From contig CAYGXJ010000120.1 in the NCBI GenBank assembly GCA_964353865.1, positions 10,112 through 74,111 on the forward strand: a DNA stretch of 64,000 nt, in the 5' to 3' direction. Shown in pieces: positions 1 through 10,420 of the stretch. The notes beneath the pieces are model-generated. The model did not search any database. It saw nothing but the letters and a program-made list of their open reading frames with translations, and was not told the origin of the DNA. The translations under genes and the position numbers were made by a program. Within the stretch, counting starts at the first letter, position 1; each line of letters begins with the position of its first letter. The stretch comes from an uncultured Anaerolineales bacterium (GTDB lineage: Bacteria; Chloroflexota; Anaerolineae; Anaerolineales; RBG-16-64-43).

Positions 1-863
1 GCCAAGACGTTGCCCAGCGTCATGGATGCAACCGACATGGCGACGACCACCCCCACCCAATAGGGTGCCACGGCCGGCGTGAACACGGTCAGCATAACGC
101 GCATGAGCACGGCGAACCCCGCGGCCTTGGAGGCTGTACTGATGAAGGCCGTAATGGGCGTTGGCGCTCCTTCGTAGACGTCCGGCGTCCAGAAGTGAAG
201 CGGGACTGCCGAAACCTTGAACCCAAAGCCGACTAGCACCAGCATGGCGGCCGCAACCCACAACACGCGCGGCATCGAACCCACGGCGATGGATTGAGCC
301 ACAGCCGCCAGGCGGGTTTCGCCGGTGAAACCGAACAGAAGGCTGAATCCGTAGAGCATGACGGTGGATGCGGCAGCACCGAAGAGGAAGTACTTGAGCC
401 CGGCCTCGGTTGAGCGTGTGTCGCGTTTGAGGTAGCCGGCGAGCAGATAGAGCGGAATCGATGTGGTTTCGATCGCCAGGTACAACATCACCAGGTCACC
501 GGCTGCGGCCATCAGGCACATGCCCAGGGTGGCGACCAGCATCAGAGCGTAGGCCTCACCGCGATCGGCCAGCCCTTCCACCCCCATCGCGAGGAGCGCC
601 GAAAGCATCGCCGCCGCCATGAGGATGACGCGGAAGGAGGCAGCCAGCGTGTCCACGCGCAGCATGCCGCCCAAGATTTCGCCGCCGGCCGGGCGCAGCG
701 CGGACCACACGGCCACGCCGAGCAGAATCGCGAGACCCGCGGCCGTGACCCACCCCAAAGATCGCCGCGCCACGCGGCGCAAAGTCATGTCCAGGCCAAT
801 GACGACTCCGGCCAGCGCCAGCAGCCCGATTTCGGGAAGAATGAATTGAAGCTCAAGAAACAC
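1..863 (-). CDS. nuoN: NADH-quinone oxidoreductase subunit N (5' part; runs off the window's left edge)
   Basis: Not in the ORF track; translated by hand. GTG at 863 follows GGAGG and gives MFLELQFILPEIGLL..., then the antiporter-like motifs GFGFKVSAVPLHFWTPDVYEGAP and STASKAAG. Lies downstream of nuoM. Confidence 0.92.
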   Translation of the reverse strand, partial: MFLELQFILPEIGLLALAGVVIGLDMTLRRVARRSLGWVTAAGLAILLGVAVWSALRPAGGEILGGMLRVDTLAASFRVILMAAAMLSALLAMGVEGLADRGEAYALMLVATLGMCLMAAAGDLVMLYLAIETTSIPLYLLAGYLKRDTRSTEAGLKYFLFGAAASTVMLYGFSLLFGFTGETRLAAVAQSIAVGSMPRVLWVAAAMLVLVGFGFKVSAVPLHFWTPDVYEGAPTPITAFISTASKAAGFAVLMRVMLTVFTPAVAPYWVGVVVAMSVASMTLGNVL

Positions 864-913: not shown

Positions 914-2386
914 TCAGGCGCCACCCAACAAGCGCATGACCGAGTTCACTCCCGAAGCCACCAGCGGCGCCATCCAGGCGGGGAACACACCCAGCGCGAT
1001 CAGAATGAAGGAGAGCACTCCCAGGGCCAGTTTGTCGAGCGGCGTCACGTCGCCGATGTGCCCCTCAAACTCCTCCGGCATCGGCCCGAAGAAGACGCGC
1101 CGCACGATGATCATGATGTAGGCCGCGGTCACAACAATGCCCAGCGCGGCGGCGATCGCCACGATCGGCTGCGCCGACCACACTCCCAGAAAGATCGGGA
1201 ACTCTGCAACGAATCCCGAAAGACCCGGCATGCCCATCGATACCAGCCCGCCCACGATAAACGCGATTGCCACCACGGGCATCTTGCGAGCGAAGCCGCC
1301 CAGCTTGGGGATGTCGCGCGTGTGCGCGCGGTCGTAGACCATGCCGACCACGGCAAAGAAGAGAGCCGTCATCACCCCGTGTGAGAACATCTGCAGGCCC
1401 GATCCGATGTAGCCCTCGCGCGAAAGCGAGGCGAAGCCGAGCATGACCAGGCCCATGTGCGAGACCGAGGAGAACCCAATGACGTACTTGAAGTCGGTCT
1501 GCACCATGGCAATCAGCGCGCCGTAAACCACATTGACCAGGGCCAGGAAGATGATCCACGGCAGATGCACCTTGGCACCTTCGGGCAGCAGCATGATGGC
1601 CACGCGCAGCGCGGCAAATGCCCCCAGCTTCATCAACACCCCGGCGTGGAACATCGAGACTGCGGTGGGCGCCGCGACGTGGCCGTCGGGGCTCCAGTTG
1701 TGGAAGGGGAACAGGCCGCCCAGCACGCCGAACCCGAAGAAGACCACGGGGAACCAGATGCGCTGGAAGGCACCCGAGAACCCTGCCCGCTCCAGTTCAA
1801 GCATGTCGAATGTGTGCAGGCCCGAAGCGAAGAACATCGCCAGCGCGCCGACTAGCGCGACCACCGAGCCGATGAACAAGTACAAGGTCAGCTTCATCGC
1901 CGCGTACTCGCGCGTCTTCTGCCAGCCCCAAATCGCGATGAGCAGGTACATTGGGAAGACCGCGATCTCGTAGAAGAAGAACAGCTGGAAGAGGTCGAGC
2001 GAGACGAAGACCCCGAACACTCCGGTGGCCAGGATGAATAAGAAGCCGAAGAATTCGCGCGGCCGGTCATCTACGCCCCACGAAATGAGCACCCCGGTGA
2101 ACATCACCACTCCGGTGAGCAGCACCAGCGGCAGGCTCAGACCGTCCACCCCGATGTGATAGGAGATGCCCCAGGCGGGCAGCCAAGGGATCTTCTGCAC
2201 CATCTGGTAGCCGCCCTGCGGGATGTCGTAGGAAAAGTAGGCGACCACTGACAGCAGCAGGGCCACGGCCGAGGCCAGCAGGGCCACACCGCGAATCCAC
2301 CCTTTGCGTTCGGCCGGCAGGAGCAGGATGATCACCCCTGCCACGATCGGCGTGAATACGATAATGCTCAAGATCGGAAAGGTCAT
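914..2386 (-). CDS. nuoM: NADH-quinone oxidoreductase subunit M, second copy (M2)
   Basis: 490-aa polytopic protein with YEIAVFPMY, HNWSPDGHVAAP, GVLMKLG, SSVSHMG and GMPGLSGFVAEF. The TM7 Lys is absent (see findings). Confidence 0.93.
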   Translation of the reverse strand: MTFPILSIIVFTPIVAGVIILLLPAERKGWIRGVALLASAVALLLSVVAYFSYDIPQGGYQMVQKIPWLPAWGISYHIGVDGLSLPLVLLTGVVMFTGVLISWGVDDRPREFFGFLFILATGVFGVFVSLDLFQLFFFYEIAVFPMYLLIAIWGWQKTREYAAMKLTLYLFIGSVVALVGALAMFFASGLHTFDMLELERAGFSGAFQRIWFPVVFFGFGVLGGLFPFHNWSPDGHVAAPTAVSMFHAGVLMKLGAFAALRVAIMLLPEGAKVHLPWIIFLALVNVVYGALIAMVQTDFKYVIGFSSVSHMGLVMLGFASLSREGYIGSGLQMFSHGVMTALFFAVVGMVYDRAHTRDIPKLGGFARKMPVVAIAFIVGGLVSMGMPGLSGFVAEFPIFLGVWSAQPIVAIAAALGIVVTAAYIMIIVRRVFFGPMPEEFEGHIGDVTPLDKLALGVLSFILIALGVFPAWMAPLVASGVNSVMRLLGGA

Positions 2387-3997: not shown

Positions 3998-6175
3998 CTA
4001 CGGCCGGAGCGCGCTCAGGTAGAAGAGCAGTGCGCCCACAACCACCACATTGACCAGGCCAATGAGCAAGTATTGCTGGACTCGGCCGGTCTGTAGCACG
4101 CGCAGAGAACGGCCGGCGCGCTTGGTGCTTTCGCCCACCAAATCGCCGAAGCCATTGATGATGGGCAGGTCGATTGCCCGCCGGAAGAAGGAGCCGAGCG
4201 CGCCGGCCAGGCGGCCGATGCCGTGCAAGACGCCGTCGATCAGCCCGCGATCCATCCACTGGTAAACGAACGTCTCACCAAACCAGCGCAATGGGCGAAC
4301 CAGAATCACATCGTAGAGCTCATCAAAGTAGTACTTGTTCTTCAAGAGGGTATGCACCGGGCCCAGCGCGCGCGCCAGCGGATCCGGCGCACCCGCCGGC
4401 ACGCGGCGGTACACCAGCCAGCCCAGCCCCAGACCGGTGAGTGCGACGCCGATCGAGGTGAGCAGCGGCACGGCCGAGAAGGCAACCGCCTCCGGCGCCT
4501 CGCCCAGCGTGCTGCCGACGAATTCGTGGAACCAGTTGGGCACGACACCGCCCAGCCCGGGGAAGTGCTCGGGGATGCCTACCCACCCGGCGGCGATGGC
4601 AAAGACCGACAAGAGCACGAGCGGCGCGGTCATCGTCCATACCGATTCATGAGCGTGGCGCGCAGCCTCGGTGCGGGGCTCGCCCAGGAAGGTGAGCGTA
4701 ATCTGGCGCCCGGTGTAGAAGGCGGTGAGCAGTGCCGAGAGCGCCAGGGTAATGAACATGACCAGCTGTCCATGGCCGAAGGCGTCTGCCAGGATTTCGT
4801 CTTTCGACCAGAAGCCCGCGGTGATCAAGGGGAAGCCCGAAAGCGCGAGGCCGCCAATGAGGAACGTGGCGAAGGTAATGGGCATTCGCCGCCGCAACCC
4901 GCCCATGTTGAACATGTCTTGCGCATCGACGTGGTGGTCGCCCGTGTGGAAGACGCCATGCTCGACGCCGTGAATGACCGATCCTGAGCCCAGGAACAGC
5001 AGCGCCTTGAAGAATGCGTGGGTCAACAAGTGGAAGGCAGCGGCGACGTAAGCGCCGATGCCCACCGCCGCCACCATGTAGCCCAGCTGGGAGATGGTGG
5101 AATAGGCTAGCACGCGCTTGATATCGTTTTGTGCCAGGGCGATTGTGGCGGCGAACATTGCGCTGAACGCGCCGATAAACGCGATGAGGCTGAGGGTGAT
5201 CGAGCTGCCGTGCTCCAGCCCGGCCGTGAGCAGCGGAAAGCAGCGCAGGATGAGATACACACCAGCCGAGACCATGGTGGCCGCATGGATGAGCGCCGAG
5301 ACCGGCGTCGGCCCCTCCATCGCATCCGGCAGCCAAACATGCAAAGGCCACTGGGCCGATTTGCCGACCGTGCCCATGAAGAGCAGCAGCCCGGCCAGCG
5401 CAGCCATCGACAGGCCCGGGATGTAGGACCGGGTCTCGACGAGGCGGGCAAGCACTTCGTGCGAGAACAGTGTGCGATATGAGAGCGTTCCGGTCTGCGC
5501 GTAGAGCGTCGCCAGGCCCAGCAGCATGAAGACATCGCCGACGCGCGTCGTGAGGAAGGCCTTCACCGCGGCCCGCTTGGCGCTGTCCTTTCCATACCAG
5601 AACCCGATCAGCAGGTACGAACACAAGCCCATGATCTCCCACCCGACGAACAGGGTGAGCAGATTATCGGAAACCACCAGGAGCAGCATACCGAAGGCAA
5701 AAAGCGAGATAAAGGCGAAGAAGCGCGAATACAGCGGCTCCACGGAAGCCACGCTGTGCTCGTGACCGCTGGTGTCCACCGAGCGCGCCCCGTGCGGCGG
5801 CAACCCGGGCGTATCGTGCTCGCCGCGCGGCTGCCCGAAGTTGTGATAGCCCACACTGTAGACGAAGATCGCCAGAAGGGTCCAGGCGACAAAGAAGAGC
5901 GTCACCGCGCCCAGTGGGTCAATCAGCGTGCCGACGGAGAAGACCGTGCTGCCGGATGGGAACCACGGGATGGAGGACTGGATGGGGTGCTCGGCCAGAC
6001 CCTCGGTGCGCAGCGCACCTGCAAAGACGATCATCGCCAAGAGCCAAGAAACCGCCAAGAGGCCGATGGCCAGCGTGTGACTCAACCTGCGATGGGAACG
6101 GGTGAAGATCAGGATGACCAAGAAGGCCACCAGCGGGGGCAGCGGGATCAGCCAGAGCAATGGTTCAAGCGGCAT
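3998..6175 (-). CDS. nuoL: NADH-quinone oxidoreductase subunit L, with lengthened C-terminal amphipathic helix
   Basis: 725 aa with WEIMGLCSYLLIGF, GKSAQWPLHVWLPDAMEGPTPVSALIHAATMV, THAFFKALLFL and NKYYFDELY...QTGRVQQY. Confidence 0.96.
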   Translation of the reverse strand: MPLEPLLWLIPLPPLVAFLVILIFTRSHRRLSHTLAIGLLAVSWLLAMIVFAGALRTEGLAEHPIQSSIPWFPSGSTVFSVGTLIDPLGAVTLFFVAWTLLAIFVYSVGYHNFGQPRGEHDTPGLPPHGARSVDTSGHEHSVASVEPLYSRFFAFISLFAFGMLLLVVSDNLLTLFVGWEIMGLCSYLLIGFWYGKDSAKRAAVKAFLTTRVGDVFMLLGLATLYAQTGTLSYRTLFSHEVLARLVETRSYIPGLSMAALAGLLLFMGTVGKSAQWPLHVWLPDAMEGPTPVSALIHAATMVSAGVYLILRCFPLLTAGLEHGSSITLSLIAFIGAFSAMFAATIALAQNDIKRVLAYSTISQLGYMVAAVGIGAYVAAAFHLLTHAFFKALLFLGSGSVIHGVEHGVFHTGDHHVDAQDMFNMGGLRRRMPITFATFLIGGLALSGFPLITAGFWSKDEILADAFGHGQLVMFITLALSALLTAFYTGRQITLTFLGEPRTEAARHAHESVWTMTAPLVLLSVFAIAAGWVGIPEHFPGLGGVVPNWFHEFVGSTLGEAPEAVAFSAVPLLTSIGVALTGLGLGWLVYRRVPAGAPDPLARALGPVHTLLKNKYYFDELYDVILVRPLRWFGETFVYQWMDRGLIDGVLHGIGRLAGALGSFFRRAIDLPIINGFGDLVGESTKRAGRSLRVLQTGRVQQYLLIGLVNVVVVGALLFYLSALRP

Positions 6176-6238: not shown

Positions 6239-6547
6239 TCAGCCGCGCAAAAGATCGGCTTCGTCGGCCACCACCGTGCGCTTAAGCCGATACAGCGAGA
6301 TGATGAGCGCGAGCCCCACTGCCGCCTCGGCGGCGGCGACCGCGAAAACCATCACCGCAAATACCTGGCCGCTCATGCGAGCCGGCTCCAGATAGCGCCA
6401 GAAGGCGACCAAGTTAAGATTGACCGCATTGAGCATGAGCTCGATGCCCATCAGAATCGCCACCGAGTTGCGGCGCGCCAGGACCCCGTACAGCCCGAGG
6501 CAAAACAGCGCCGCCGCGACAATCAGATACCAGGAAAGTGGCACCAT
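6239..6547 (-). CDS. nuoK: NADH-quinone oxidoreductase subunit K
   Basis: Start re-called to the ATG at 6547 (GGAGG upstream). RRN...MGIELMLNAVNLN and VAAAEAAVGLAL motifs. Confidence 0.95.
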   Translation of the reverse strand: MVPLSWYLIVAAALFCLGLYGVLARRNSVAILMGIELMLNAVNLNLVAFWRYLEPARMSGQVFAVMVFAVAAAEAAVGLALIISLYRLKRTVVADEADLLRG

Positions 6548-6594
6548 GTGTTCCTCACCTCCGGCGAACGGGCCAACAAGTCTCCCGCACAGCA

Positions 6595-7101
6595 CTAGCG
6601 AGAGTCACCGGCGATGACAATCGCCCCAACCAGCGCCGCCAGCAGCAACACCGACGCAACCTCGAATGGCAGCATGTATTGCTCGGGCGAGAGCAGCGCC
6701 TGGCCAAGCAGCAACACCGGATCCTCGCCAGCCAGCGCCGGTGGCGTGGCGCTCGTGCCGGGCAGCGAACCCAGCAGCCAGGCCAGCCCGGCGAAGAGCG
6801 ACATCGCCAACAGCGCAGGCAGCGGCCACCAGCGATGGGTGTGCTGCCCCCGCTCACGCATCTCGCGCCGGGTGAGCATGATGGCAAAGATGATCAGCGT
6901 GGCAATCGCGCCCACGTAGATCACCACCTGCACCACCGCCATGAAGCCGGCCTCCAGCACCGCAAACAGCGCCGCCACGCCGAACAAAGAGAGGATGAGC
7001 CACAGGGCAGCATGCACGATGTTGCGGCTGACGACAACCAGGGCGGCCGACACCAGCACGACGGCGGAAATCACCACGAAGATGACTCGGGCAATCGTCA
7101 T
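6595..7101 (-). CDS. nuoJ: NADH-quinone oxidoreductase subunit J
   Basis: Start re-called to the ATG at 7101 (AGGAG upstream). NIVHAALWL, QVVIYVGAIATL and YMLPFEVASVLLLAALVGAI motifs. Confidence 0.94.
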   Translation of the reverse strand: MTIARVIFVVISAVVLVSAALVVVSRNIVHAALWLILSLFGVAALFAVLEAGFMAVVQVVIYVGAIATLIIFAIMLTRREMRERGQHTHRWWPLPALLAMSLFAGLAWLLGSLPGTSATPPALAGEDPVLLLGQALLSPEQYMLPFEVASVLLLAALVGAIVIAGDSR

Positions 7102-7109
7102 CGTCACTC

Positions 7110-8309
7110 CTAACGCCTCAAGGCCGCCGGCGCCGGCGTAGCGGTGGAAGCCGCGCGCATCCGCGCTGACCGTCCGCGCATCCCGAGAATGGTGAGCACC
7201 AGGGCGGCCAGGAACACGTTCGCGCCCAGAAGCGCCGCGTTGCGCAGCCACAGGGAACTCTCGCTGAGCCCGCGGTTAACCACCGCCAGCAGCGGGATAA
7301 GGAACAGGCCGAGCGGCGTGAGCAGCTTCCAATTGAAGTCCAGCATCTGGTCGATGCGGATGCGCGGGAAGGTGGCCCGTGCCCAGACGAAGATGAAGTA
7401 GACGAAAGTCCCCTTGAGGATGAGGTACACGGCACCCAGCGCGGGGTAGGTCTCCGCGCCCGGGCCCGTCCATCCGCCCAGAAAGAGCGTGGCTCCCAAA
7501 AGGCCCATCGTGAACGAGTGCAGGAATTCGCCGACAAAGAAGAAGCCGAACTTCATCCCCGAGTATTCGATGTTGAAGCCGGCCACGATTTCCGACTCGG
7601 CTTCCAGCAGGTCGAAGGGCGCACGGCTAACTTCCGCCTGGGAGGCGATGAGGAAGAGCAGCGCAGCCAGCGGTGCCGAGAAGACAAACCACACCTCGCG
7701 CTGTGCGGCGACGATGCCGTTCAATCCCAATGAGCCCGAAAGCAGGACCGGCACCAGCAACGAGAGCACCAGCGGCACTTCGTAGGAGATCATTTGCGCC
7801 ACCGTGCGGAATGCACCCAGCAGCGCGTACTTGTTGTTGGCCGACCACCCGGCCAGCATAATGGCCAGAGTCGAGAGAGTGCCCACGGCCACCAGATACA
7901 GGACTCCGACATTCAAGTCCACGCCGAACGCGTTCGTGGCGAAGGGGATGACCGCCCACAAGCCCAGCACACCGGCGACGGCGAGCACCGGGGCCAGGGC
8001 GAAGACGACGCGATCTGCGCCCAGCGGGGTGATATCCTCTTTGGTGAAGATCTTAACCATGTCCGCGAAGACCTGGAGCAGACCGAACGGCCCGACGCGG
8101 TTCGGTCCCATCCGGTCCTGCAAACGCGCGATCCACTTGCGCTCGAGCCAGATGAGCGGGACGGCGGTGAGCAAGGCGAGCAGCGGAAGCAGGGCCGCAA
8201 CCAGCGCCGAGAACGCCCCGCGCGCGGCGCTCTGGCTTAGCCCGGCGCGCATGAGCAGGCCCTGCAGCCACATCCCTAGCGTATAGAAGAAGTCACCCAG
8301 GTTGACCAT
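7110..8309 (-). CDS. nuoH: NADH-quinone oxidoreductase subunit H
   Basis: WLERKWIARLQDRMGPNRVGPFG, KEDITP, NNKYALLGAFR...QMISYE, RAPFDLLEAESE and RIRIDQ motifs. Confidence 0.96.
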   Translation of the reverse strand: MVNLGDFFYTLGMWLQGLLMRAGLSQSAARGAFSALVAALLPLLALLTAVPLIWLERKWIARLQDRMGPNRVGPFGLLQVFADMVKIFTKEDITPLGADRVVFALAPVLAVAGVLGLWAVIPFATNAFGVDLNVGVLYLVAVGTLSTLAIMLAGWSANNKYALLGAFRTVAQMISYEVPLVLSLLVPVLLSGSLGLNGIVAAQREVWFVFSAPLAALLFLIASQAEVSRAPFDLLEAESEIVAGFNIEYSGMKFGFFFVGEFLHSFTMGLLGATLFLGGWTGPGAETYPALGAVYLILKGTFVYFIFVWARATFPRIRIDQMLDFNWKLLTPLGLFLIPLLAVVNRGLSESSLWLRNAALLGANVFLAALVLTILGMRGRSARMRAASTATPAPAALRR

Positions 8310-8335
8310 GCGTGCTTCACCTACTAACAGAAAAT

Positions 8336-8362
8336 CGCCTATCGTGCTCTTGACGATAGGCG
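8336..8362 (-). terminator. Intrinsic-terminator-like hairpin between nuoA and nuoH
   Basis: Perfect 10-bp inverted repeat CGCCTATCGT-N7-ACGATAGGCG, followed on the minus strand by ATTTTCTGTT. Confidence 0.55.
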
Positions 8363-8384
8363 CGGGACGACGGACGGATTGCGT

Positions 8385-8741
8385 CTACTGCCACTCCAGG
8401 GCACCTTTACGCCATGCGTAGAGCAGGCCGACCGCTAGGATAAGGATGAAGAGCGCACCCTCGAGGGTGGCAAAGAGGGGCAGCTGGCCGTAGGCCCGCG
8501 CCCACGGGTAAAGGAATACGACTTCCACGTCGAAGACGACAAAGGCAAGGGCATAGACGTAGTATTGGGCCTTGAATTGCACCCAGCTCTCGCCCACCGT
8601 CTCGACACCGCATTCGTACGTTTGTTGCTTGATCGGGCTGGGTTTCTTCGGACCGAGCAGCCGCGCCATGATCAAAGCCGCCCCCGGCAGTACGATGGCT
8701 ACGATCATGAAGATGCCGACCACCGACCACGCGTTATCCAT
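8385..8741 (-). CDS. nuoA: NADH-quinone oxidoreductase subunit A
   Basis: Start re-called to the ATG at 8741. TYECGVE and [22 protein letters not shown] motifs; ends KGALEWQ. Confidence 0.95.
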
Positions 8742-8849
8742 CACCGACTGCCTCGCCAACGAAGAGATGCGTTCGATCCGCCAGGCGACCATTGCAGTGC
8801 GTCATCAAGGGTCAAAGAGGAGGCGCGCCCCAGGGGGACAGCGCGCCAG

Positions 8850-8878
8850 ATAGTATCATGCAGGCAGAGAGTTGTCAA
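8850..8878 (-). promoter_or_regulatory. Sigma70/SigA-type promoter of the nuo operon
   Basis: Minus strand reads TTGACA-17 nt-TACTAT with an extended -10 TG (TGATACTAT), about 110 nt upstream of the nuoA start. Confidence 0.8.
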
Positions 8879-9235
8879 AGCCCGTCGGAATCATTTGCGC
8901 CATTAGTTGGTGCAAAGATTCTGCGGACTAATGAGATACGAAGGGTCTGCTTTTTGCCTGACATTGGCTGAGGCGTGGTCAGGCGAGCGAGTCGGCATCG
9001 ATGGAAGCGATCAAGGACGGCAGACGGGCATCGCCGTTGCGTAGTACCTGATGGTCGGCGTCACGAAGGCACATGCGAGGGAGCCGCGCGCGAGGCGGGC
9101 TTCCGCAGTACGTACGCAGCGGTCGCAGTCGCTCGCCGCTGGCCGCGTGCCCGGCGCCGTGTGGCGCTACAATTGATGAACCGGCTCGTTGCAGGCGCAC
9201 TCTAGGCCGGCTCATATGCCTCCGGGCTCACCACC

Positions 9236-9454
9236 ATGAGTCGACCCCATTTCGCCATCAGGGTCACATCGGGGCTCGGGTTGCTCTTCCTCCTTGCGCT
9301 GGGAGCCAGCCATCTGGCTCTCACAGATATCGCGCACGGCGGGTCCGACCTGCGTCTCGAGTGGAATGTGCTGCGAATCTCGGGGACGGTGATTGCGGTT
9401 TTCATTGTGACCGCAAAGGCCGCCCTGAGGCGGACGGCCAAGCCTCACCGCTGA
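9236..9454 (+). CDS. Small hypothetical membrane protein (72 aa, two predicted hydrophobic segments)
   Basis: Two hydrophobic stretches flank LTDIAHGGSDLRLEW, followed by a basic tail. A TACAAT lies at 9168-9173. Composition is unlike the Arg/Pro-rich shadow ORFs. Confidence 0.5.
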   Translation: MSRPHFAIRVTSGLGLLFLLALGASHLALTDIAHGGSDLRLEWNVLRISGTVIAVFIVTAKAALRRTAKPHR

Positions 9455-9513
9455 CGCGCACACCAGCGCATCCCACTCCTCGCGAGGGGTCGCCTGCAGG
9501 CAGGGAGGCATCT

Positions 9514-10420
9514 ATGCATTCGCGGCAAGCCGGAATGATGAAAGCTTACCTGCGATTGCAGCGCGTGGTTTCACCACCCCGCCGCGATCTTGTTGAGGAG
9601 AAGGACCGAGCGGACCTGGAGGCAATGGCGCGCCTCTTCCGACCGCTGGGCAAGGTCGAATGCCGGCCGGTCAAGGCCGCGGCGATTCCTGCCGAATGGA
9701 TTGTGCCCGCCGACCTGATTGCCGGGAGGACCGTGCTCTACCTTCACAGCGGCTCCTTCAACGCCTGCTCAATTGGGACTCACCGCGCGCTGGCCGCCAA
9801 CCTTGCGCTGGCTTTGAGAGCTCGCACACTCATCATCGATTACCGCCTCGCGCCGGAGCATCCCTTCCCCGCCGGGCTGCAGGATGCAGCCGCCGCATAC
9901 GAATGGCTGCTCGGGCAGCCCACGCCGCCCAGTGATTCGATCCTCGCCGGCGATTCCGCCGGCGGCGGGTTGGTGCTGTCGCTGCTGATCGACTTGCGCG
10001 ATCGCCGGCATCCATTGCCCAGGATGGGCGTATGCCTTTCCCCGGCCACCGACCTCACGATGAGCGGCGCCTCGATCCGCACGCACGCCGCCGCCGACCT
10101 CGTTCTGGAGACGCGCAACATGCATCAATCGGTCGACATCTACCTGCGCGAGACCGACCCGCGCAATCCGCTCGCCTCGCCGATGTTCGCGGATCTTCAT
10201 GGCTTGCCGCCGCTGCTGCTGCAAGTCGGATCCGAAGAAATGTTGCTCTCCGATTCAACCGAGTTCGCGGCACGGGCCGAGGCGGCCGGAGTGAAGGTCA
10301 CCCTGGAGGTCTGGCCGTGGATGCAGCACGTTTGGCATTTCGCCGCGAGCTTCGTCCCCCAAAGGGCGCGAGGCGATTCTTCGCGTTGCGCAATTTGTCG
10401 AGCGCACTTTCGGCGAATGA
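9514..10420 (+). CDS. Alpha/beta hydrolase (HSL-family esterase) with an apparent +1 frameshift near its 3' end
   Basis: ATG at 9514 after GGGAGG. LYLHSGSF, IDYRLAPEHPFPA, GDSAGG nucleophile and MQHVWH. The expected last helix (REAILRVAQFVERTFGE-stop, TGA 10418-10420) lies in another frame after the C5 run at 10356-10360. Confidence 0.85.

Follow-up and report, generated by a model that had tools for sequence, protein, structure and literature searches.

Can an antiporter-like subunit of respiratory complex I work without the lysine of its transmembrane helix 7 (TM7)? In E. coli, mutation of this lysine is reported to cripple complex I. Models of complex I and of the Mrp antiporters hold the TM7 lysine and its partner, the TM5 glutamate, as invariant coupling elements, and the lysine has been described as absolutely conserved, essential, and a regulator of the proton pathways (PMC7419157). 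The question is raised by a 64,000-nucleotide stretch of DNA (the window; positions 10,112 to 74,111 of contig CAYGXJ010000120.1, assembly GCA_964353865.1) from a 2.8-Mb Anaerolineales-type metagenome-assembled genome (MAG) with 65% G+C. Two nuoM genes, here M1 and M2, sit between nuoL and nuoN in the window, which is the arrangement that marks a “2M” complex I, and M2 encodes leucine at the lysine site; the lineage to which it belongs lacks that lysine and is a natural test of complex I proton pumping. We propose that M2 is probably a working antiporter-like subunit from a deep monophyletic lineage that lost the TM7 lysine once and usually has a protonatable group at another position, on TM8 or TM5.

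By profile and fold, M2 is a NuoM. It scores 461.3 bits against the NuoM/ND4 profile TIGR01972 (cut-off 263.8), and its AlphaFold2 model (predicted local distance difference test, pLDDT, 92.8; predicted template-modelling score, pTM, 0.93) shows a 14-TM antiporter-like fold with broken TM7 and TM12. The best Foldseek match of this model is the Paracoccus NuoM structure 8qby_M, with a template-modelling score (TM-score) of 0.96 and a root-mean-square deviation of 1.6 Å; since the best PDB match is only 35% identical, there is as yet no structure of this NuoM subtype. Aligned to E. coli NuoM (from NC_000913), M2 pairs E140 with E144, L222 with K234, H247 with L259, K253 with K265, E395 with E407, H310 with H322, and H336 with H348, and its segment over TM7 and TM8 reads GFGVLGGLFPFHNWSPDGHVAAPTAVSMFHAGVLMKLG. 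Thus, M2 retains the TM5 glutamate, the central TM8 lysine, and the NuoM-specific TM12 glutamate, and lacks the TM7 lysine that should pair with the TM5 glutamate. The absence of the TM7 lysine and the retention of these three residues had been read from the sequence in the initial annotation, as had the contrast on TM8 of MFHAGVLMK in M2 with MILAGVLLK in M1, and the reading stands: codon 222 is CTG, codon 247 is CAC, and the pairing of L222 is reproduced by a phmmer alignment to 8qby_M and by a profile-profile alignment (hhalign) to NuoL. A search for another lysine in TM7 of M2 found none, the sole basic residue of the segment being R209, at its start. Moreover, the TM7 break of the AlphaFold2 model (residues 221-227) contains L222, which places the leucine where the lysine usually lies.

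In most other respects, M2 resembles canonical NuoM/Nqo13/ND4 such as the E. coli and Paracoccus proteins, with which it shares the fold, the TIGR01972 match, the TM5, TM8, and TM12 residues named above, the TM10/11 histidines, and the location between nuoL and nuoN. It differs from them by K234 to Leu and L259 to His, and also by changes around the same region that are typical of its clade (in E. coli numbering, W143Y, F174L, T178L, and A247G, the first of which puts Tyr139 of M2 in place of the canonical tryptophan), by loss of the usual acidic residue at 250, and by replacement of the basic residue at 313 with tyrosine. The charges lost by the whole clade are basic at 234 and 313 and acidic at 124 and 250. 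A compensating charge was sought across the alignment, and none is common to all members of the clade.

The closest relatives of M2 are proteins of Anaerolineales MAGs, with 97% identity to one from RBG_16_64_43, and none of the 119 homologues that share at least 75% identity departs from Leu222 and His247. To reach further, three motif scans of at least 600 stretches each were made on contigs from one genome per species, of which 80 loci per scan (240 in total) were kept; the TM7 lysine is missing in 235 of 235 clade members from these loci, and the site is Leu, Phe, or Ile in the clade. Judging from this invariance, the L222/H247 state of M2 is not decay, and a pseudogene or a decaying duplicate is ruled out. 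Among 129 full-length representatives of 50%-identity clusters, the 29 without the lysine fall together in one clade (Shimodaira-Hasegawa-like approximate likelihood ratio test, SH-aLRT, 84), sister to, or nested beside, canonical NuoM sequences. A second tree, to which the proteins of the 240 loci were added, gives the lysine-less clade an SH-aLRT of 100 with one change of state, both trees being quick searches under LG+G4 with weak backbones. This phylogeny implies a single loss of the TM7 lysine, in a deep clade of NuoM. M1 and M2 are 36% identical and lie in different deep clades, so that M2 is not a recent duplicate of M1; all M1 of 2M clusters form a clade of their own (SH-aLRT 99), found only in 2M clusters here.

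What, then, could take the place of the lysine? In M2, the histidine of TM8 is a candidate. The survey of covariation proposed in the initial annotation finds TM8 His almost confined to the lysine-less background, in 14 of 30 lysine-less representatives versus 1 of 95 lysine-bearing ones. In NuoM and NuoN, which are MrpD-like, the TM8 lysine is the sole protonatable residue of TM8, whereas MrpA has H273 besides K279, and in NuoL only that histidine remains (Steiner and Sazanov, PMC7419157). The H-x5-K spacing of H247 and K253 in M2 equals that of H273 and K279 in MrpA, and an hhalign comparison of the M2-type profile with the NuoL profile pairs H247 with NuoL H254 and L222 with NuoL K229. NuoL H254 has been described as a “histidine switch” that joins the Lys-Glu pair (via K229), the N-side uptake route, and the P-side route, and in conformation B it hydrogen-bonds S150, the residue six positions after E144 (PMC13358369). 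M2 therefore has its histidine in the same register as the switch of NuoL/ND5 and MrpA (E. coli NuoL H254; A. flavithermus MrpA H273 and K279; B. subtilis MrpA H221). Unlike NuoL and MrpA, however, M2 is phylogenetically a NuoM and has no lateral helix, no T-M-V motif after the histidine, and neither K342, nor the TM12 lysine, nor the TM7 lysine.

Two further observations concern proteins of this kind. Five M2 of Thermoflexales (L065, L067, L071, L075, and L076; genes at about 8001-9509) have also lost the TM8 lysine and kept the histidine, which is the NuoL arrangement; their signatures, written as the TM5, TM7, TM8-6, TM8, and TM12 residues, are ELHAE and ELHNE. A match on contig C115 was considered as the MrpA of this genome and rejected as a charge-poor antiporter-like protein; at C115:16904-20584 are two antiporter-like membrane proteins (472 and 538 aa) nearly without charged relay residues, adjoining an 817-aa protein.

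The histidine is not general in the clade: members from Bacteroidota and from Verrucomicrobiota/Acidobacteriota are without it and have instead a lysine six residues after the TM5 glutamate (Glu+6; M146 in M2, M150 in E. coli). This position was exposed by splitting the lysine-less clade according to the presence of the histidine. Of the 235 lysine-less proteins from the loci, 76 combine the TM8 histidine with Met, Val, or Ile at Glu+6 and 159 combine Lys at Glu+6 (VPKY for VPMY) with a TM8 leucine; no protein has the histidine and this lysine together, and Lys at Glu+6 occurs in 0 of about 238 lysine-bearing NuoM sequences. NuoL has S150 at Glu+6, and because S150 hydrogen-bonds the switch histidine, the TM8 histidine and the Glu+6 lysine should, by homology, occupy one pocket beside the TM5 glutamate. 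Mapped on the tree, the TM5 lysine shows four changes of state and the histidine shows five, and in four independent contrasts the histidine never moves in the same direction as the lysine. We infer from these patterns that His247 and the TM5 lysine compensate functionally for the missing TM7 lysine. Of the readings in the initial annotation, a rewired or His-substituted channel in M2 has the most support, in that the histidine lies at the NuoL/MrpA site, but the histidine itself is not a general requirement in the clade.

Gene context bears on what such a subunit does. The lysine-less type is the NuoN-adjacent M of L-M1-M2-N clusters and the sole NuoM of 11-subunit nuoABCDHIJKLMN operons, and the clade is associated with operons or split loci without nuoEFG. 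In Chloroflexota (Anaerolineae, Thermoflexales, and Chloroflexus), the order is A-H-J-K-L-M1-M2-N with a median NuoL of 728 aa, M1 of signature EKLKE, and M2 of signature ELHKE; in Verrucomicrobiota and Acidobacteriota, it is (B)CD-I-H-J-K-L-M1-M2-N with a median NuoL of 699 aa, M1 EKLKE, and M2 ELLKE. Bacteroidota (Chitinophagaceae and relatives) have A-B-C-D-H-I-J-K-L-M-N with a median NuoL of 644 aa and a sole M of signature EFLKE, and nine loci of Neomoorella, Planctomycetota, Armatimonadota, Goldiibacteriota, Rokuibacteriota, and others have a single M, ELHKE, and a NuoL of 616-648 aa (616-679 aa for single-M lysine-less operons overall). Across all four groups, NuoN keeps the counterparts of E133, K217, K247, and K395 (EKKK), as the window NuoN does, and NuoL keeps E144, D178, K229, H254, K305, H334, H338, K342, K399, and D/E400; M1 reads EKLKE in 134 of 135 cases. 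Because this type stands alone as NuoM in many phyla, in hundreds of 11-subunit operons or species, and NuoL, NuoN, and M1 are canonical, a purely structural role for M2, which the initial annotation had allowed for, is unlikely. Phylogeny and gene order together make M2 look like the resident NuoM beside NuoN, with the canonical M1 as the added module between M2 and a lengthened NuoL.

Side observations on the 2M clusters concern M1. In Verrucomicrobiota/Acidobacteriota 2M loci (L163-L242), M1 has Ala at Glu+6 in 73 of 73 cases, where canonical NuoM has Met, and the M1 of a Chloroflexus locus (L073) clusters with these M1 and not with the other Chloroflexota M1.

If the subunits are arranged in the complex in the order L-M1-M2-N, as we infer, a relay may be sketched. 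It would run from NuoN K390 (TM12) to M2 E140 (TM5), then to H247 and K253 (TM8), to H310 and H336, to E395 (TM12), and from there to M1. The part of E. coli K234 would be played by H247, which would join the TM5 glutamate both to the central lysine and to N-side uptake along TM8, and a lysine on TM5 at Glu+6 would be the alternative substitute in sister lineages, with the TM8 and TM5 positions lining one pocket in M2, as they are hydrogen-bonded in NuoL. More generally, and tentatively, the Glu-Lys pair of TM5 and TM7 may not be obligatory in antiporter-like subunits, if any titratable group in the cavity suffices for coupling.

Several points weigh against this proposal. Residues T257, M258, and V259, conserved in NuoL and MrpA (PMC4938563), are not present in M2, whose TM8 reads H-A-G-V-L-M-K, nor is K342, and the TM7 lysine that partners the switch histidine is also missing (Leu222). 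The mutual exclusivity of the TM8 histidine and the TM5 lysine rests on about four independent phylogenetic contrasts, and the sign test is not significant (p 0.125-0.25) because four contrasts cannot reach significance. Six of 75 lysine-less rows of the second tree carry neither residue: in two of these a His lies two residues before the TM8 lysine, in two there is an additional Glu at Glu+2, and in one the TM7 site is Glu. The distance between H247 and E140, and the nearness of Glu+6 to H247, are drawn by homology from the published description of NuoL, and, given the tree backbone, either the single-M or the 2M state could be ancestral. Among the representatives, five lysine-less proteins are likewise without both the histidine six residues before the TM8 lysine and the TM5 lysine: the TM7 lysine site is Glu in P0136 (Armatimonadota), His stands two residues before the TM8 lysine in P0143 and P0180, and the additional Glu at Glu+2 occurs in P0137 and P0220.

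One may argue that M2 is a non-pumping relay or spacer between NuoN and M1, its N-side half-channel dead and its Glu-Lys pair broken, in which case the 2M complex would gain no proton from M2 and single-M complexes of this type would pump one fewer. This fits the role of regulator given to the TM7 lysine, as well as its replacement by Leu, Phe, or Ile throughout the clade, and models in which protons are released only at NuoL/Nqo12 already treat NuoM mainly as a lateral axis (PMC7419157). Nevertheless, E140, K253, H310, H336, and E395 are all retained under strong purifying selection, a protonatable residue is usually present at the TM8 or TM5 position, and M2-type proteins are the sole NuoM of hundreds of species whose NuoL and NuoN are otherwise canonical; in addition, a leucine in the axis without a substitute would interrupt lateral transfer too. 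We consider a non-pumping M2 unlikely.

Less probable still, at perhaps a slim chance, is that the rewired pocket alters ion specificity or the direction of coupling, with Na+ or K+ as in Mrp or with reverse electron flow, which may suit complexes without NuoEFG that perhaps work with ferredoxin-like partners. The tie of the clade to operons or split loci without nuoEFG and the H-x5-K motif on TM8, otherwise that of MrpA, speak for such a change, and 2M complexes have been suggested to carry out reverse electron transport (PMC6606698; PMC9040806). However, the Na+ path of Mrp is assigned to the MrpA C-terminal/MrpF/MrpC region and not to the TM5/7/8 pocket (PMC7419157), M2 has gained no acidic or Na+-ligand cluster, and the NuoL-specific T257, M258, and V259 are missing from it. 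As for an artefact of alignment register, sequencing error, or a decaying duplicate, it is refuted and scarcely conceivable, since three independent alignments agree and show no other TM7 lysine, CTG is at least two base changes from AAG or AAA, 119 homologues show no variation at these residues, the lysine is absent from 235 clade members, and M1 and M2 are too divergent and too far apart in the tree.

Our preferred reading, that M2 is a working antiporter-like subunit with a substituted pocket, has consequences for how complex I is modelled. The two mutually exclusive substitutes lead to a testable hypothesis on what the pocket must contain, and if the Glu-Lys pair is indeed dispensable, models based on charge state would be favored over those in which the ion pair opens and closes, with natural variants in culturable organisms ready for testing them; clade members from cultured strains include those of Pinibacter, Puia, Longitalea, Leptolinea, Granulicella, Paracidobacterium, and Neomoorella. 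The extra-proton idea for 2M complexes is also affected. The 2M proposal that Chadwick and colleagues made in 2018 reportedly has both M subunits assembled and five protons per 2e-. The initial annotation had brought the missing lysine of M2 to bear directly on that idea; the link needs reframing, because with M2 resident and M1 added, the module of the proposed extra proton is the canonical M1, found only in 2M clusters, while the unusual M2 is the NuoM already beside NuoN.

The locus itself is an ordinary member of the 2M complex I of Chloroflexota, the Anaerolinea thermophila type (Chadwick, Hemp, Fischer & Orphan 2018), as summarized in PMC7117926 and PMC6606698. It has the same gene order, nuoA-H-J-K-L-M1-M2-N (Table 1), and a separate locus (contig C72:9718-12765) holds nuoB, a fused nuoCD, and nuoI, matching the Chloroflexota layout described in PMC7117926; no architectural difference was seen. 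A lateral-helix insertion of about 26 aa in the NuoL of 2M complexes has likewise been published (PMC9040806), and the window NuoL has it with 27 residues (650-676). The 11-subunit complex I without NuoEFG (nuoABCDHIJKLMN) is related through its NuoM, which in the Chitinophagaceae-type, Neomoorella, and Planctomycetota operons that were fetched falls in the clade of M2, but differs from the window in having one M and a short NuoL and, in Bacteroidota, Phe at the TM7 site, Lys at Glu+6, and no TM8 histidine. Hence, the 2M architecture, including the Chloroflexota layout, is already published, and the residue-level rewiring of M2 is the addition made here; loss of the TM7 lysine and its substitutes were not found in the searchable full-text literature, a search outside which the text of Chadwick et al. 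2018 lies.

Table 1. Complex I genes and key sites of the window, in window positions
Feature	Positions	Strand	Remarks
nuoN, 5' part	1..863	minus	whole gene 478 aa on the contig
nuoM2 (M2), 490 aa	914..2386	minus	lysine-less NuoM; signature E140/L222/H247/K253/E395
M2 Glu395 codon	1202..1204	minus	NuoM-specific TM12 glutamate, E. coli E407
M2 Lys253 codon AAG (plus strand ctt)	1628..1630	minus	central TM8 lysine, E. coli K265
M2 His247 codon CAC (plus strand gtg)	1646..1648	minus	six residues ahead of the TM8 lysine; equivalent to NuoL H254 and MrpA H273
M2 Leu222 codon CTG (plus strand cag)	1721..1723	minus	site of E. coli NuoM K234, the TM7 lysine
M2 TM5 motif Y139-E140-IAVFP-M146	1949..1972	minus	TM5 glutamate E140; clade-specific Tyr139; Met146 at Glu+6
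nuoM1 (M1), 506 aa	2447..3967	minus	canonical E143/K232/L257/K263/E416 plus H320 and H357
nuoL, 725 aa	3998..6175	minus	canonical key residues E, D, K, H, K, H, H, K, K, D
NuoL lateral-helix insertion (residues 650-676)	4148..4228	minus	27 residues; alignment of 2M with single-M NuoL
NuoL N-terminal loop insertion (residues 112-143)	5747-5842	minus	32 residues, Gly/His/Pro-rich
Upstream membrane-arm genes nuoA-H-J-K together	6239..8792	minus	open reading frame (ORF) list and family profiles
nuoK	6239-6595	minus	ORF limits; upstream part of membrane-arm operon
nuoJ	6595-7251	minus	ORF limits; upstream part of membrane-arm operon
nuoH	7110-8309	minus	ORF limits; upstream part of membrane-arm operon
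nuoA	8385-8792	minus	ORF limits; upstream part of membrane-arm operon

The lateral-helix insertion is present in 96% of Chloroflexota and 95% of Verrucomicrobiota/Acidobacteriota 2M NuoL, and is missing from E. coli NuoL and from the NuoL of single-M lysine-less operons. The same genome has a complete canonical 14-subunit nuo operon with a single M on contig C13, and the NuoL encoded there (C13:3761-5839) has the same insertion of about 27 residues, which is held to mark 2M complexes, as well as the His-rich loop seen at residues 405-416 of the window NuoL. The N-terminal loop insertion of the window NuoL occurs in about half of Chloroflexota 2M NuoL and is missing in all others compared. Finally, a second NuoE/F/G-like set lies at contig C31:89834-93216, apart from both nuo membrane-arm loci, and might either serve the 2M complex as its electron-input module or be part of a hydrogenase or formate dehydrogenase.

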